Shown in pieces: positions 12,029 through 55,844 of a stretch of 64,000 nt of DNA. Within the stretch, counting starts at the first letter, position 1. Each line of letters begins with the position of its first letter. The notes beneath the pieces are model-generated. The model worked only from the letters and a program-made list of their open reading frames with translations. It did not search any database and was not told where the DNA came from. The stretch is from a phage: assembly GCA_036253055.1 (NCBI GenBank), contig GCA_036253055.1_4124.1, one strand, 5' to 3'. The position numbers were made by a program, and so were the translations under genes.

Positions 12029-12238
12029 GATTTGTTTCCTTATTACCAGGGGAAACCGTTTCCCCTTTCGATGTAAAACATTATACGCTTATTGAGATAG
12101 TTTGCAAGTACTTTTTAAAAATAGTTTTCAGTACTCAAACATTATATAATAGATACACTTATGCACCCTGTGGGCTAGTGAGCTATCTCTCAATGAATAT
12201 ATAATAGCAAAATGGCTGACCGGAGTCAACCACTTTTT

Positions 12239-50760: not shown

Positions 50761-51402
50761 TCAATAAAAAACTGGATCTTCTTCAGTAATTGGTATTTCT
50801 CTACGCACATCACACGAAAGAGGATCAGTAATGAATACATTCCCATCTTTATCCATCATTACATTACTTGAATGAATGTCTGGTACAAAACGCCCGTGAA
50901 ACTCTTTCATGATGTTAGCAGCGACCGTTGCAATAGCAATCTCTTCAGAATTACCACGCATATCATTCACTGAAGTAGCGTACTGACCAGCATGTGCATA
51001 AGAATATAAATCTCCAATTTTAGTACTAACAAAGTCATCATAATTATTTTTTTGTTTAATTATAGGATAGTACTTGTCCATCTCATACCATCCAAAGTTT
51101 CCTTGTTCGTTGGCACTGTAGATCACTGGAAGAAACTTGGTTCCTGCGTTTTCAATGCAGTACTTTGCATAAGCACGAAAACCATCCCAGCGTGAAGTGG
51201 TTACTTTAAATGCACGCCCAGGATAGTTTTTATGTTCAACTACTACAGAGTACATCCCCATTCCAAGCAAAGTAAGTCCAGCAGCTTTAACTTGTGGAAA
51301 GATTACGCGTTCAGCATAAGGAATATCAAACTCCATCGCACAACGAGTTTTTGATGGACGCAAAATGTCAATTAAAGTTTTGAATATTTCTTGCTTAGTC
51401 AT
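50761..51402 (-). CDS. protein kinase-like / phosphotransferase-like protein
   Basis: Start moved to ATG 51400-51402 (SD GAGGA); catalytic-loop-like DIHSSNVMM and ITDP (DFG-position). Confidence 0.45.
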   Translation of the reverse strand: MTKQEIFKTLIDILRPSKTRCAMEFDIPYAERVIFPQVKAAGLTLLGMGMYSVVVEHKNYPGRAFKVTTSRWDGFRAYAKYCIENAGTKFLPVIYSANEQGNFGWYEMDKYYPIIKQKNNYDDFVSTKIGDLYSYAHAGQYATSVNDMRGNSEEIAIATVAANIMKEFHGRFVPDIHSSNVMMDKDGNVFITDPLSCDVRREIPITEEDPVFY

Positions 51403-51471
51403 TACTTTATCCTCTGTAGTTAATATCAACATCATAACAAAAAAGGCTGACCGAAGTCAACCCTTTTATTA

Positions 51472-51900: not shown

Positions 51901-52224
51901 TTATTTTATTTTACACGTCATATCGGGTTGTGCTGGTTTATTATTTTTAAACGGATTAGGTTTTTTATCTTTCTTTTTATCTTTTAAAGGTTTTTTGTCT
52001 TCTTTTTTATCTTTATCTTTGTCTTTTTTATTGTTATCAGGTTCAGATTGAGTATTACATTGTGCTGGTGATGGGTTCGTCGGGTTACAGCTATTGTCGG
52101 GTGGGAGTTTTACTTCTTTACAATTGTAAAATAGTAAACTTTTATTTGTGGTTAAATTATGAAAACGATAATTACGTTCATTATTATAATAAATTGTTTT
52201 AGTACTTTCAATGTCATTGCACAT
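51901..52224 (-). CDS. Lys-rich, Cys-containing hypothetical protein
   Basis: 107 aa; KKDKDKDKKEDKK tract; weak SD. Confidence 0.4.
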   Translation of the reverse strand: MCNDIESTKTIYYNNERNYRFHNLTTNKSLLFYNCKEVKLPPDNSCNPTNPSPAQCNTQSEPDNNKKDKDKDKKEDKKPLKDKKKDKKPNPFKNNKPAQPDMTCKIK

Positions 52225-52234
52225 TGCTACTGAA

Positions 52235-52486
52235 TCACCGGAACTCTTTTTCTATTCCCATTACATCAGTCTTACGCTCAGATAGTATACCTGAAGTATA
52301 TGAATCTTTGTTATCAAATGCATTAAATCCAATAGTTGTGTCGATGTCGTGTATTATTCCTTTTGTGTATGAAGTGGTATAGAAATCCCCATTTCTGAAA
52401 TCCTGTCTTGCTACGGAGCAATGATAATCTGCACCATAACTAGTACTGGAAAATAATACAATTCCAAATATAATATATTTTTTCAT
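52235..52486 (-). CDS. small secreted protein (signal peptide)
   Basis: Start moved to ATG 52484-52486 (SD GAGGG); N-terminus MKKYIIFGIVLFSSTSYG. Confidence 0.5.
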   Translation of the reverse strand: MKKYIIFGIVLFSSTSYGADYHCSVARQDFRNGDFYTTSYTKGIIHDIDTTIGFNAFDNKDSYTSGILSERKTDVMGIEKEFR

Positions 52487-52558
52487 TGTAATCCCTCTTC
52501 TTAATTCCTCTTTTATATTTACAAAAAAAAGGTTGACCGAAGTCAACCTTTTAAATGT

Positions 52559-54046
52559 TTATTTTTTATCCTTTCCAACACCACTGTCGTACTCTTTGAA
52601 TGAGTTATCAAGTGTAGTTAGTGCATACTCATATGCTTCTGGTGATTCAATGTCAACATCATCTGCACCATTTACTAAATCAGCCCACGCCTTTTGAAGT
52701 TTACGAGCATTGTTACCAACATTATCTTTAATCCAACTAATGTTTTTGTTGATACTTTTACGATCAGCACCTGCTTTTTTGCCAATCTCGGATATCCACA
52801 TCATTAGCTTTTGAAGTTCATGAATTGATTTATCGGTCATTTCAAGATGTTCTTCTTCCATACCTTCGGAATCAGATGAACCAACGTCAATTCCATGTTT
52901 AGCTAATAGTTTACCAAGTTCAAAGAATGCAGCTTCAGCAGGGAAGTCATAACCTTTCTCTTTGTAGTTATTCCATGCACTATCAAACTCGTCAACAAAA
53001 CGGTTAGCATAATCTGGATTTTTAACTAATGCTTTATATACTGCCATTGCATGTTCAAAACCTTCTTTATCTGACCCAAACTCTTCCATCTCAGGACGAT
53101 GAATGTATCCATCCATATCAACGGTATCAGGTATTTCTTCTTGCTCAGGCTCAACATCTTTCTGTTCAACTGCACCCTCTTCATCTGCACGCTTTAGATA
53201 ACCATCTGGTGTTACCTTCTCACCATGTTCTGCTTCATACTTTTTCATAGTGTTGAATGCAGCATCCATAGCTGTTACGAAGCGACTTTTCTCACCTTGT
53301 ACATAAGATTTAAGTGCACTGTTAACTGCATCTGATACGAGCTTAACCTTATCGTCTTTACCTTCTAAACGGTTTTCAAGTTTAGCCAGTACATTCTTGA
53401 CTTGCTGGGCATTAGCACGGTCTGCTTTACCAATATTATCAAAAGTTTTAAGAATACCATCAAGACTTGCTTCACCCTGTTCAGGTTCTTTGGAATCTTC
53501 TTTGTGTGTACCTTCAAGTGCACGCATGATAGTACTGAATACTTCAGTTGGTTCAGTGCTCTTATTACCTTTCATTACATCAAGTACAGCTTGTGCTTTA
53601 CCTTTGAGTTCTTCTTTAGGAACTGCCTGTAGTGCTTTGACAATACCCTGAATCAACTGTGGTTTGTTAGCAAAGATCTTACCTAAGTTATCTGATAACT
53701 CTTTAACAGGGTTAGCAGCTTTAGGTACTTCTGCTTTTGGTTCTTCTTTAGGAACTGCTTGTTCTTTCTCAGCACGTTCCATATCAGCAAGGCGTTGTTT
53801 TTGTGTTGCGTTAAGAAGACCTAATGAGTTAACATAACGTAGCTTTTCTAGCTCAGTCATGTTCTCAGTACTCTTAACTTCACCTGCTTCTGCGTTTGCT
53901 TTACCAGCTAGACCAGTTCCTTGGTTACGTGACCCACGTGAACCTTGACCTGCTTGATAACTATTTGGACGGCGGTTGCGTTCACTCCATTTATCAGAGT
54001 GACCAGCCATGTTACCACCATTTTTATCAGTAAAATTACTTGGCAT
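52559..54046 (-). CDS. large K/E-rich hypothetical protein, paralog of 54316..54699
   Basis: About 495 aa; start uncertain (ATG 54046, 54061 or 54070); shares YxxSLGLL and KALQxVPKEE-like segments with 54316..54699. Confidence 0.5.
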   Translation of the reverse strand: MPSNFTDKNGGNMAGHSDKWSERNRRPNSYQAGQGSRGSRNQGTGLAGKANAEAGEVKSTENMTELEKLRYVNSLGLLNATQKQRLADMERAEKEQAVPKEEPKAEVPKAANPVKELSDNLGKIFANKPQLIQGIVKALQAVPKEELKGKAQAVLDVMKGNKSTEPTEVFSTIMRALEGTHKEDSKEPEQGEASLDGILKTFDNIGKADRANAQQVKNVLAKLENRLEGKDDKVKLVSDAVNSALKSYVQGEKSRFVTAMDAAFNTMKKYEAEHGEKVTPDGYLKRADEEGAVEQKDVEPEQEEIPDTVDMDGYIHRPEMEEFGSDKEGFEHAMAVYKALVKNPDYANRFVDEFDSAWNNYKEKGYDFPAEAAFFELGKLLAKHGIDVGSSDSEGMEEEHLEMTDKSIHELQKLMMWISEIGKKAGADRKSINKNISWIKDNVGNNARKLQKAWADLVNGADDVDIESPEAYEYALTTLDNSFKEYDSGVGKDKK

Positions 54047-54133
54047 TTGATTTCTCTCCATAGATTTCATTTTTTTCTCTATGTCTATATTTATAGTATA
54101 AAGAAAAGGCTGACCGAAGTCAACCTTATTTTG

Positions 54134-54247
54134 TTACTTAGATTGTTCTTGTGCAGGTGGATTTACTTTTTGATCCACTACATAGAATACACCACCAACC
54201 AGTACTGCGGCGATGAGTGCAGCAACTACAAATTTTAAACCTTGCAT
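54134..54247 (-). CDS. hydrophobic micro-protein (37 aa, single TM)
   Basis: Hand-translated MQGLKFVVAALIAAVLVGGVFYVVDQK...; SD GAGGT. Confidence 0.35.
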   Translation of the reverse strand: MQGLKFVVAALIAAVLVGGVFYVVDQKVNPPAQEQSK

Positions 54248-54315
54248 ATATGATACCTCAGTTATATTGAGAAGTTATGATACAACAAAGGGCTGACCTT
54301 AGTCAACCCTTTTTA

Positions 54316-54699
54316 TTACTTCTTGAACTTATGTTTTTCACTTTCGATTGCATTCACGATTTCATCATGAATTTTACGAAGATTGTGAGTTTTCTTTAGA
54401 GATTCATGTAATGCACGGAATGCAGAGTGTACAGTTGCTTTAAAGTGCTCTTTAGGAGTTACTTTAAGTTTCTCGATAATATCACGTACATAGATTGGGT
54501 GATCCTCAAACACACGATTAAGCTCATGACCTAGTGATTCTAGGCTAAATGCTTTTTCACGGGATGGACGATCATGTGCAAGACTTTGGTCTGGTTTTAG
54601 AAGACCTAGTGAATCTAGATACTTGTTCTTATGTGCATTGTCTAGACCAGAAATATCAACATCATGTGATGGATCTTTCTTATTCCATTTATCAACCAT
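54316..54699 (-). CDS. hypothetical protein, paralog of N-terminal part of 52559..54046
   Basis: 127 aa; SD AGGAG. Confidence 0.5.
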   Translation of the reverse strand: MVDKWNKKDPSHDVDISGLDNAHKNKYLDSLGLLKPDQSLAHDRPSREKAFSLESLGHELNRVFEDHPIYVRDIIEKLKVTPKEHFKATVHSAFRALHESLKKTHNLRKIHDEIVNAIESEKHKFKK

Positions 54700-54814
54700 T
54701 TTTATAACTCCTATAAGAGATAAATTTTACTATAATATTTATAGTTCCGTTGTCATTTATATAGAATGACATAAAACATTATATCATAATAAGAATGGTT
54801 GTCCCAAAGTTAAA

Positions 54815-55258
54815 TTAGTACTGATCAAGTTCAGATGTAAAAATGAATGCATCCATGTCTTCCAACGTAAGTTTTAAGTCTGGTACGTACTTAAGAATAA
54901 CGCACTCTGGCTTCTTAATAGCAGCTTGATAAGCAGCAATGGCAAGGGATTCCAACTGCTGTGCTGTATAATTTTTACGTTCTGCATTAAAAACTTTGTT
55001 TTTGATATCACCACCTGGGAGTTTTTCAAACTCACGCATAACTGCGGTAAGAACATCGTCAGCAGTGTTACTATATACCCATTGGGGTAATTGCATTACA
55101 TTATAAATCACACCACTATCATCCATCAAAGAGATCCATTTATATCCATCACTCGCACTAAACAAACGCCCTTTTAGTACTGTGTTATTAGTTAAATTTA
55201 CAAATGCAAAAATATCTTGTTCGTTAAGTTCAATACTATTAACATTTACCCAACTCAT
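54815..55258 (-). CDS. hypothetical protein
   Basis: Start moved to ATG 55256-55258. Confidence 0.45.
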   Translation of the reverse strand: MSWVNVNSIELNEQDIFAFVNLTNNTVLKGRLFSASDGYKWISLMDDSGVIYNVMQLPQWVYSNTADDVLTAVMREFEKLPGGDIKNKVFNAERKNYTAQQLESLAIAAYQAAIKKPECVILKYVPDLKLTLEDMDAFIFTSELDQY

Positions 55259-55271
55259 TACGATTCCCCAT

Positions 55272-55844
55272 TCATAAATCACGAACAATATTCATTAAAC
55301 ACAATTTAGGTTTTATAGCATTCAACACCCATATGCATTCTTTGTAAGTAGCTATTATATCATCTAAATGCTCAGTTACAATGCTTTCTTGAAAATATTC
55401 TTCATCATTGAGCTTTGCTAATTTAGTAACATCACACGTAGGCACTATAGGTCTGGATTGTACACCCATTCCATTATTGATATTAGTGAAATGTACAAAA
55501 TGGTACTTCACAACACCTTTATCTAGATTTACTATACATGACAAGTTTTCCAACTCAGTTAGTTCTTTACTACAAGTAACATTAATGAAACCAGTATTAT
55601 AGGCTCTATAATCATCTACTGATATCTCAAAATCATTACGCTGAAATATAAGTGAAATGAGTTTGTCCAGTGGTTTTACATTCATATATTTTAATGAATT
55701 TACGTATGATACTTCAATCTTAGATGAAATTATTTTTTTACTAAGTGCAGTCAATTCTTTATTAGATTTACCTGTTAATACTATAGGTTTAAACCTAGAA
55801 CTCTTATTTTTCTTTGATACTTTAAAACGACCTTTACGATTCAT
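55272..55844 (-). CDS. hypothetical protein
   Basis: Start moved to ATG 55842-55844 (SD GAGGAAA); track start was GTG. Confidence 0.45.
   Translation of the reverse strand: MNRKGRFKVSKKNKSSRFKPIVLTGKSNKELTALSKKIISSKIEVSYVNSLKYMNVKPLDKLISLIFQRNDFEISVDDYRAYNTGFINVTCSKELTELENLSCIVNLDKGVVKYHFVHFTNINNGMGVQSRPIVPTCDVTKLAKLNDEEYFQESIVTEHLDDIIATYKECIWVLNAIKPKLCLMNIVRDL

Follow-up and report, generated by a model that had tools for sequence, protein, structure and literature searches.

The 64,000-nucleotide (nt) stretch of phage DNA analysed here (GenBank assembly GCA_036253055.1, contig GCA_036253055.1_4124.1; hereafter, the window) carries on its minus strand a gene for a charged protein of 495 amino acids (aa) and a gene for a 127-aa protein, referred to below as the large and the small protein. 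We find that these genes are an old duplicate pair within a small family of virion-packaged accessory proteins that is limited to RaK2-like jumbo phages. The best-supported description of the pair is that of late-made, low-copy accessory proteins of the virion, and the location that we favour, with a rough probability of 40%, is the interior of the head, from which the proteins would be released together with the DNA at infection, as internal-head or ejected proteins.

Around the two genes (positions 52000-55500), the window is 99.7% identical in DNA to Escherichia phage 121Q, an Asteriusvirus (jumbo myovirus, 348.5 kb), and shares 88-99% identity with some 35 related coliphages. The 121Q records label the two proteins, gp201 and gp199, alike as 'virion structural protein'. 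Thus, both genes were already annotated and the presence of their products in particles is already in published proteomes, so that the significance of the present findings is modest. What our analysis adds is the joining of two PHROG families into one small family confined to RaK2-like jumbo phages, the recognition of an unusually conserved disordered N-terminal segment as the signature of that family, and the description of the large protein as a mosaic of exchangeable cassettes.

Homology of the two proteins

The initial annotation had read the small protein as a paralogue of the N-terminal region of the large one. Both open reading frames (ORFs) are present on the minus strand (Table 1), and their alignment, for which a lack of significant similarity had been named as refuting this reading, yields significant similarity: BLASTP with compositional adjustment aligns the two proteins over 110 residues with 22% identity, at E=1e-7. 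The Smith-Waterman score of the pair is 84, against 36.0 +/- 5.5 for shuffled sequences (0/2000 shuffles as high), and reciprocal phmmer searches against all 614 ORFs of the window return the partner as the sole match (E about 5e-5). At the profile level, both proteins match PHROG 16530, the small one at 1.8e-55 and the large one, over its residues 1-180, at 4.7e-38; the large protein also matches PHROG 20398, at 1.7e-250. Both families bear the label 'virion structural protein', with no further function given, and the link between them through the common N-terminal module is missing from their separate definitions.

The two shared segments that had first drawn attention to the pair are recovered as well. 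YVNSLGLL of the large protein (residues 71-78) aligns with YLDSLGLL of the small protein (27-34), and IVKALQAVPKEE (135-146) aligns with the AVPKEE-like IIEKLKVTPKEH (74-85). The pairwise BLASTP alignment places the first motif in another register; the multiple alignments agree with the register of the initial annotation. In family alignments comprising 13 to 49 members, K68, Y71, L75, G76, L121, F125, P129, I135 and L139 of the large protein show no variation, and P143, K144, E145 and K148 reach a conservation of 90% or more. A hidden Markov model (HMM) of the family, run over the complete genome (350 kb) of a relative with 98.6% identity, finds only these two proteins (next E=0.8); they form a pair and are not part of a larger intragenomic family.

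The notion that two charged helical proteins resemble each other through composition alone, without homology, could draw on the pairwise identity of merely 22-24% and on a second 'AVPKEE' of the large protein (residues 103-110) that sits within a low-complexity, Pro/Glu/Lys-rich linker of variable length, but it has next to nothing left to stand on, being ruled out by the shuffle, composition-adjusted BLASTP and PHROG tests (a single profile matches both proteins at the order of 1e-38 or better), and being at odds also with the agreement of the predicted helix patterns of the two proteins and with the bridging sequences P0078 and P0081, which join a large-type N terminus to a small-type helical domain.

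Presence in virus particles

The proposal that these are virion proteins is borne out by mass spectrometry of three related phages, phAPEC6, JP4 and CBB. In virions of phAPEC6 analysed by electrospray-ionization tandem mass spectrometry, gp035c, the 417-aa orthologue of the large protein, was represented by 8 unique peptides (28.8% coverage), and gp037c, the 127-aa orthologue of the small protein, by 5 peptides (48% coverage) (PMC7247149). Both JP4_543 and JP4_541 were found in JP4 virions, with 2-4 peptides per protein (PMC12648861), and CBB_38, the 172-aa sole homologue in phage CBB, was covered to 56.6% by 9 peptides (PMC5259590). The annotation of RaK2 ORF275 likewise reads virion structural protein; RaK2 ORF276, which lies next to the large homologue, was checked and is not a family member.

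The label-free abundances reported for JP4 are 5.1e6 for the small protein, 1.6e6 for the large protein and 6.6e8 for the major capsid protein (PMC12648861). Relative to the major capsid protein, this corresponds to about 0.8% for the small and 0.25% for the large protein, in a single shallow dataset that is not normalised, and the pair look like minor virion components in JP4. Our search of the literature found no direct study of these proteins, no Asteriusvirus transcriptome and no high-resolution structure.

Protein architecture

The large protein had been described as K/E-rich, charged and probably helical. It contains 11.1% K and 11.1% E, and its AlphaFold2 model, built on a 49-sequence alignment, has approximately 55% helix and zero beta strand. 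The mean predicted local distance difference test score (pLDDT) is 71.5 and the predicted template modelling score (pTM) is 0.28, the latter indicating modules without a fixed mutual arrangement. A basic, predicted-disordered tail is followed by two helices (residues 65-96), a disordered linker (97-112), a four-helix domain (113-177) and three further helical cassettes, denoted B, C and D (Table 1), that are separated by disordered acidic linkers in the model. Charge is polarised along the chain: the N-terminal tail has an isoelectric point (pI) of about 10, against a net charge of -19 for the whole protein. The small protein is modelled as the YLDSLGLL helix plus a four-helix domain with the same helix pattern as in the large protein.

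Searches against Pfam, NCBIfam and the sequences of the PDB, made with both proteins and with eight more members of the family, identified no credible domain. Neither AlphaFold2 model matches a fold in the PDB (best E-values 0.68 and 4.0), and the large model retrieves only its own family from BFVD. Weak, sub-threshold matches to Tau95 and Phage_80a_gp11 were rejected. The same applies to an ankyrin repeat identity: phmmer matches to designed ankyrins over residues 370-466 are weak (best E=5.7e-4), no single stretch passes alone, and the Pfam Ank profile does not match the large protein; the ankyrin-like segment FPAEAAFFELGKLLAKHGIDVGSSD (residues about 370-402; 52895-52960, minus strand) is one helix-turn motif, not a repeat array. 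The label 'chromosome segregation protein' (SMC/SbcC-like) attached to phAPEC6 gp035c is likewise unsupported, there being no SMC or ATPase family among the Pfam and NCBIfam matches and the model consisting of short helical bundles; the label probably stems from low-complexity matches between charged helices.

Family, conservation and cassette turnover

Two features define what we call the N-module family, namely, a helix carrying YxxSLGL and a four-helix domain in which L, F, P, I, L and PKE positions are conserved; both proteins possess them, as judged by the alignment columns and the matching AlphaFold2 helix patterns. A profile search of 1.84 billion representative proteins retrieved 32 clusters only, all from RaK2-like jumbo phages, and tblastn matches are confined to the same phages, with hosts in the genera Escherichia, Klebsiella, Salmonella, Erwinia, Yersinia, Serratia, Pectobacterium, Cronobacter and Xanthomonas. 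The family core spans approximately 160-180 aa and consists of the basic disordered tail, the YxxSLGL helix, the Pro/Glu/Lys-rich linker and the four-helix domain. Given that the majority of the divergent members are short (156-202 aa) and possess the tail at the N terminus, and that long forms are found only in the 121Q and RaK2 branch, the sequence comparison suggests that the short form is probably ancestral.

The best-conserved segment of the family is the N terminus that is predicted to be disordered. Residues 1-52 of the 121Q protein are 63% identical to CBB_38 and to Munch_040, as compared with 31% and 16%, respectively, for the four-helix domain. The N-terminal consensus reads MPxxFxxKNGGxxAGHSDKWSDxNRRxNSxxAGxGSRGSRNQGTGxxGKANT...DTSKMxPEEKLKYFxSLGL; its first part, MPxxFxxKNGGxxAGHSDKW...GSRGSRNQGTG, is present in the large protein, and the small protein keeps only 'DKW'. 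The 127-aa paralogue has thus lost the disordered tail. In the bridging sequences P0078 and P0081, the tail is joined to a helical domain like that of the small paralogue; the contigs of P0081 are too short to show whether a large paralogue accompanies it. In two-member genomes (Asteriusvirus and the Munch/SE_PL/7t3 group), one copy bears the tail and the other is tail-less. Among the genomes examined, single-member genomes always keep the tail, and tail-less members occur only beside a tail-bearing one.

Beyond the common N-terminal core (N), the large protein is a mosaic of exchangeable, mutually unrelated, all-helical cassettes (A-E). The protein of the window phage (495 aa) has the arrangement N+B+C+D, that of JNE01 (606 aa) N+A+B+C+D, those of phAPEC6 and JP4 (417 aa) N+B+D, that of UB (515 aa) N+A+B+D, and that of K64-1 (564 aa) N+E+A+D'. 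Thus, C-terminal cassettes are gained or lost between phages that are about 90% identical in DNA. The possibility that the cassettes are internal repeats was rejected: hhalign comparisons among modules N1, N2, B, C and D gave probabilities of at most 2%, indicating unrelated modules. Stray cassette copies elsewhere in the genome of a near-identical phage were searched for, and none was found.

Variation also extends to the very end of the large protein (52559-52600, minus strand). The 121Q type terminates in ...EYDSGVGKDKK, and most orthologues end in ...YENGNVTPWEKDIMSKYGK; in the DNA alignment with phAPEC6, a 27-nt in-frame gap and local divergence lie right before the stop codon.

Probable late transcription units

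Each of the two genes has its own copy of TATAAATA, a T4-type late-promoter motif, upstream and a hairpin downstream, and thus appears, on the basis of these signals, to be a separate late transcription unit comprising promoter, gene and hairpin terminator. The motif occurs twice in the window, against 12.8 +/- 3.2 copies expected, and both copies are on the coding strand, ahead of the genes of this pair. In the 350-kb relative, 14 sites are found where about 60 are expected, an approximately four-fold depletion, and 13 of the 14 lie no more than 150 nt upstream of an ATG-initiated ORF. Among the genes that follow them are those for the major head protein, a 371-aa K/E-rich protein, a baseplate hub protein and a tail-lysozyme-like protein, together with those for further large proteins that we take to be tail or baseplate components. 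The 7-mer ATAAATA is likewise strongly avoided, and the genome appears purged of stray late-promoter motifs. A T4-late-like ATAAATA motif ahead of structural genes has been described for CBB (PMC5259590). The distant homologue Munch_040 has TATAAATA about 40 nt upstream.

The hairpins at this locus have folding energies of -12 to -18 kcal/mol, with z-scores of -4 to -5.8; the one at 54287-54312 is not picked up by a simple terminator scan. An 18-nt hairpin, GGTTGAC-TTCG-GTCAGCC, is present in 9 copies in the window, where none is expected (minus-strand matches at 12214, 43500, 45668, 46950, 51445, 52531, 54108, 54291 and 57532), and the same element is found 3' of the homologues in RaK2, Munch and phAPEC6. 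It forms the stem of a terminator, and its TTGACT can double as the -35 box for a downstream -10-like hexamer. In this respect, the repeat resembles the composite terminator/promoter of the PeSL cassettes of T4-like phages, which mediate gene shuffling (PMC4122927).

Location in the virion and possible roles

We favour a location inside the head given the flexible, all-helical architecture of the proteins, the conserved basic tail, the position of the genes off the structural block, the turnover of cassettes, and the internal material of phAPEC6 heads that has not been assigned to proteins. The models are all-helical and lack a beta-rich domain of the kind expected in decoration or fibre proteins, and the genes are located away from the block of structural genes, in the vicinity of a gene for a T7 gp0.7-like kinase. 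The late-promoter motifs and the pattern of tail loss are likewise in line with this reading. Under this scenario, while the prohead is assembled, the family core would bring the protein into the head by attaching to a partner in the core, portal or shell and/or, by means of the basic tail, to the packaged DNA; at infection, the protein would exit together with the DNA. The extra acidic, all-helical cassettes of the 495-aa protein would then be variable cargo. The 127-aa protein would be a cargo-less version minus the basic tail, and may need the tail-bearing paralogue, via the common helical domain, for its incorporation.

The closest functional analogy, although one that the comparisons we could run do not turn into membership, is with the internal proteins of phage T4. 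The genes for the T4 internal proteins and alt lie outside the head gene cluster. These proteins are small to medium-sized accessory virion cargo that is dispensable for assembly, packaged through the N terminus and delivered with the DNA, and one of them, IPI, counters a host nuclease (PMC9958956). The pair described here resembles them in having a common N-terminal region, late-promoter motifs and a variable C-terminal part, but shares no sequence or fold similarity with them: IPI, IPII, IPIII and Alt are absent from the Pfam, PHROG and NCBIfam matches, and no PDB sequence or fold matches. Furthermore, the T4 targeting sequence is approximately 10 residues long, common to IPII and IPIII, and cleaved by gp21, whereas the conserved N-terminal element of the present family extends over 50-80 residues and occurs in one protein per genome. 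The T4 internal proteins are also present in about 360 copies each, unlike the pair, which are apparently minor components.

A second system for comparison is the inner body of jumbo phages. In phiKZ and its relatives, the head contains an inner body made of several proteins, and an inner body of unassigned composition has also been seen in bubblegrams of phAPEC6 (PMC7247149), a close relative of the window phage. The authors of that study reported that no phAPEC6 protein is similar to any phiKZ inner-body protein (PMC7247149), and our BFVD and PDB fold searches, which returned nothing beyond the family itself, reveal no homology to phiKZ inner-body proteins either. The apparent abundance of the pair in the JP4 dataset is low.

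Several observations weigh against a place in the head interior. The small amounts measured in JP4 speak against the pair being major constituents of an inner body. An HMM of the tail, run over the 350-kb genome, matches only the large protein (next E=0.72), and being confined to one protein per genome, the tail is not a general capsid-targeting peptide like that of T4. The processing site of the phiKZ type is S/A/G-x-E; inspection of the shared region by eye, an informal check, found no convincingly conserved protease cleavage motif of the form L/I-x-E or S/A/G-x-E. The searches described above gave no structural or sequence match to known internal or ejection proteins. Finally, sigma-70-like boxes overlap both promoters of the pair, and a sigma-70-like TTGACA...TATAAT pair is read upstream of CBB_38 in place of TATAAATA, so that expression may not be exclusively late; sigma-70-like matches in this region are no commoner than in shuffled sequences, which makes them weak evidence.

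The alternative that survives best, although we consider it rather unlikely, is that the proteins are external or peripheral accessories of the virion, either adaptors or anchors for hair-like capsid or tail fibres or components of the neck or tail, with the cassettes serving surface or host interactions. Low JP4 abundance would fit a stoichiometry limited by vertices, neck or tail, the unusual fibres of phAPEC6 and CBB consist of proteins that are for the most part unassigned, and cassette turnover is typical of host-interaction proteins too. However, the models show none of the beta-rich, Ig-like, collagen-like or trimeric coiled-coil features of fibres, the genes are far from the tail and fibre gene blocks, and it is hard to explain why the best-conserved part of a surface protein should be a basic disordered tail.

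That same tail, with its GSRGSRNQGTG stretch, could instead bind the packaged genome, making the proteins DNA-associated packaging or condensation factors, possibly part of the inner body, that have no effector role after ejection. We regard this as improbable: the basic character of the small protein and the inner-body rod of phAPEC6 with its unassigned composition are in line with such a role, but the copy number seems to be low, the large protein as a whole is strongly acidic, the small paralogue is devoid of the basic tail, and the fold searches recognise no DNA-binding fold.

The initial annotation had also entertained a scaffold, and the results speak against this option. The proteins persist in mature virions, their models contain no long coiled coil, only short bundles on disordered linkers with a longest predicted helix of 20 residues, and a better candidate sits beside the capsid gene, all of which makes a scaffold role unlikely. 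That candidate is a 371-aa, K/E-rich, probably coiled-coil protein, which in the relative genome OR844650.1 is encoded at about 119.9-121.1 kb, directly before the major capsid gene; its gene is preceded by a TATAAATA motif and occupies the position of the T4 scaffold gene gp22. T4 gp22 is itself charged, K/E-rich, helical and expressed late, as the pair appear to be, but head maturation breaks it down into small peptides (PMC9958956), whereas the pair persist in virions, lack long coiled coils and are encoded far from the major capsid gene. A related scenario, in which the pair are late assembly factors, chaperone- or scaffold-like, that remain in purified particles merely as residues or contaminants, gains something from the few peptides and low abundance in JP4 and from the detection of the scaffold-like 371-aa protein (JP4_337) in JP4 virions at a similar level (9.0e6; PMC12648861). 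Nevertheless, we hold this to be quite improbable because the proteins or their homologues were found by several independent laboratories in several genera, with good coverage in phAPEC6 and CBB, have no long coiled coil and are not encoded next to the head-assembly genes, where the separate scaffold candidate is located.

Returning to the head interior, the tail and helical core may form a packaging-and-delivery handle specific to RaK2-like jumbo phages, with the swapped cassettes as injected cargo that acts on the host, for example, against its defences; we offer this extension as speculation and deem it doubtful. The tail-less 127-aa paralogue could, in that case, ride in by pairing with the tail-bearing one. 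If true, this would be a modular effector-delivery platform, analogous but unrelated to the capsid-targeting-sequence system of T4. Should the N-terminal module be a packaging handle, the family would offer candidates for those internal head proteins of these jumbo phages that have yet to be assigned, and the module a possible tag for loading foreign proteins, as has been done with the T4 targeting sequence.

Gene models and genomic context

The coordinates of the pair and of the associated elements are collected in Table 1. Read from its first ATG, the ORF of the large protein spans 52559-54070 (503 aa), and some database gene calls (e.g., P0001, 503 aa) use this start, which adds MKSMERNQ (54047-54070, minus strand). 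We favour the ATG at 54046, which yields the 495-aa form, because it is preceded by a GGAGAG ribosome-binding site 7 nt upstream and followed by an N terminus, 'MP..F..KNG', that is kept across genera, from E. coli phages to Pectobacterium phage CBB; the ATG at 54070 has neither a ribosome-binding site nor a conserved start sequence.

Table 1. Positions of the paralogous genes, their protein modules and the associated signals in the window
Feature	Position	Strand	Remarks
Large paralogue, 495 aa	52559-54046	minus	121Q gp201; 55 kDa, pI 5.14
Tail, codons 1-57	53876-54046	minus	basic, Gly/Arg/Asn/Ser-rich, pI about 10; predicted disordered, pLDDT <50
Region common to small paralogue, codons 58-178	53513-53875	minus	YVNSLGLL helix, Pro/Glu/Lys-rich linker, predicted four-helix domain with IVKALQAVPKEE
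Cassette B, residues 195-275	53222-53464	minus	predicted four-helix module (AlphaFold2, alignments)
Cassette C, residues 320-384	52895-53089	minus	predicted helical; absent in phAPEC6, JP4 and UB orthologues
Cassette D, residues 405-488	52583-52834	minus	best-modelled helical module, pLDDT 80-95
Small paralogue, 127 aa	54316-54699	minus	121Q gp199; pI 9.05, 11 His
ORF between paralogues, 37 aa	54134-54247	minus	121Q gp200, phAPEC6 gp036c; bracketed by two hairpins
T4-type late-promoter motif TATAAATA	54736-54743	minus	36 nt upstream of ATG of small gene
T4-type late-promoter motif TATAAATA	54088-54095	minus	41 nt upstream of ATG 54046 of large gene
Sigma-70-like match ATGACA-16 nt-TATAGT	54729-54756	minus	overlaps late motif; 10/12 consensus positions
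Sigma-70-like match TTGACT-18 nt-TATCAT	54277-54306	minus	upstream of 37-aa ORF; consensus scan
-35/-10-like pair TTGACT-17 nt-TATACT	54095-54123	minus	TTGACT belongs to hairpin terminator 54106-54127
Hairpin GGGTTGAC-TAAG-GTCAGCCC with T-rich tail	54287-54312	minus	directly past stop of small gene; -17.6 kcal/mol, z = -5.8
Hairpin terminator AAGGTTGAC-TTCG-GTCAGCCTT	54106-54127	minus	member of 9-copy window repeat
Hairpin terminator AAAAGGTTGAC-TTCG-GTCAACCTTTT with T run	52527-52552	minus	past stop of large gene; -16.8 kcal/mol, z = -5.4

The ORF between the paralogues encodes a single hydrophobic helix (MQGLKFVVAALIAAVLVGGVFYVV... / MQGLKFVVAALIAAVLVGGVFYVVDQKVNPPAQEQSK). All three genes belong to an extended series of small, probably early genes on the minus strand, among which are those for a T7 gp0.7-like protein kinase and for endonuclease V. 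The kinase gene (50761-51435, minus strand) lies 1-2 kb downstream of the family member, both in 121Q-type phages and in the distant phage Munch, which suggests local conservation of the synteny between the virion-protein gene and the kinase gene. The pair is closely followed by two small minus-strand genes (51901-52224 and 52235-52486), one of which encodes a low-complexity KDKDKKEDKK stretch and the other a product that starts with the signal-peptide-like MKKYIIFGIVLFSSTSYG.

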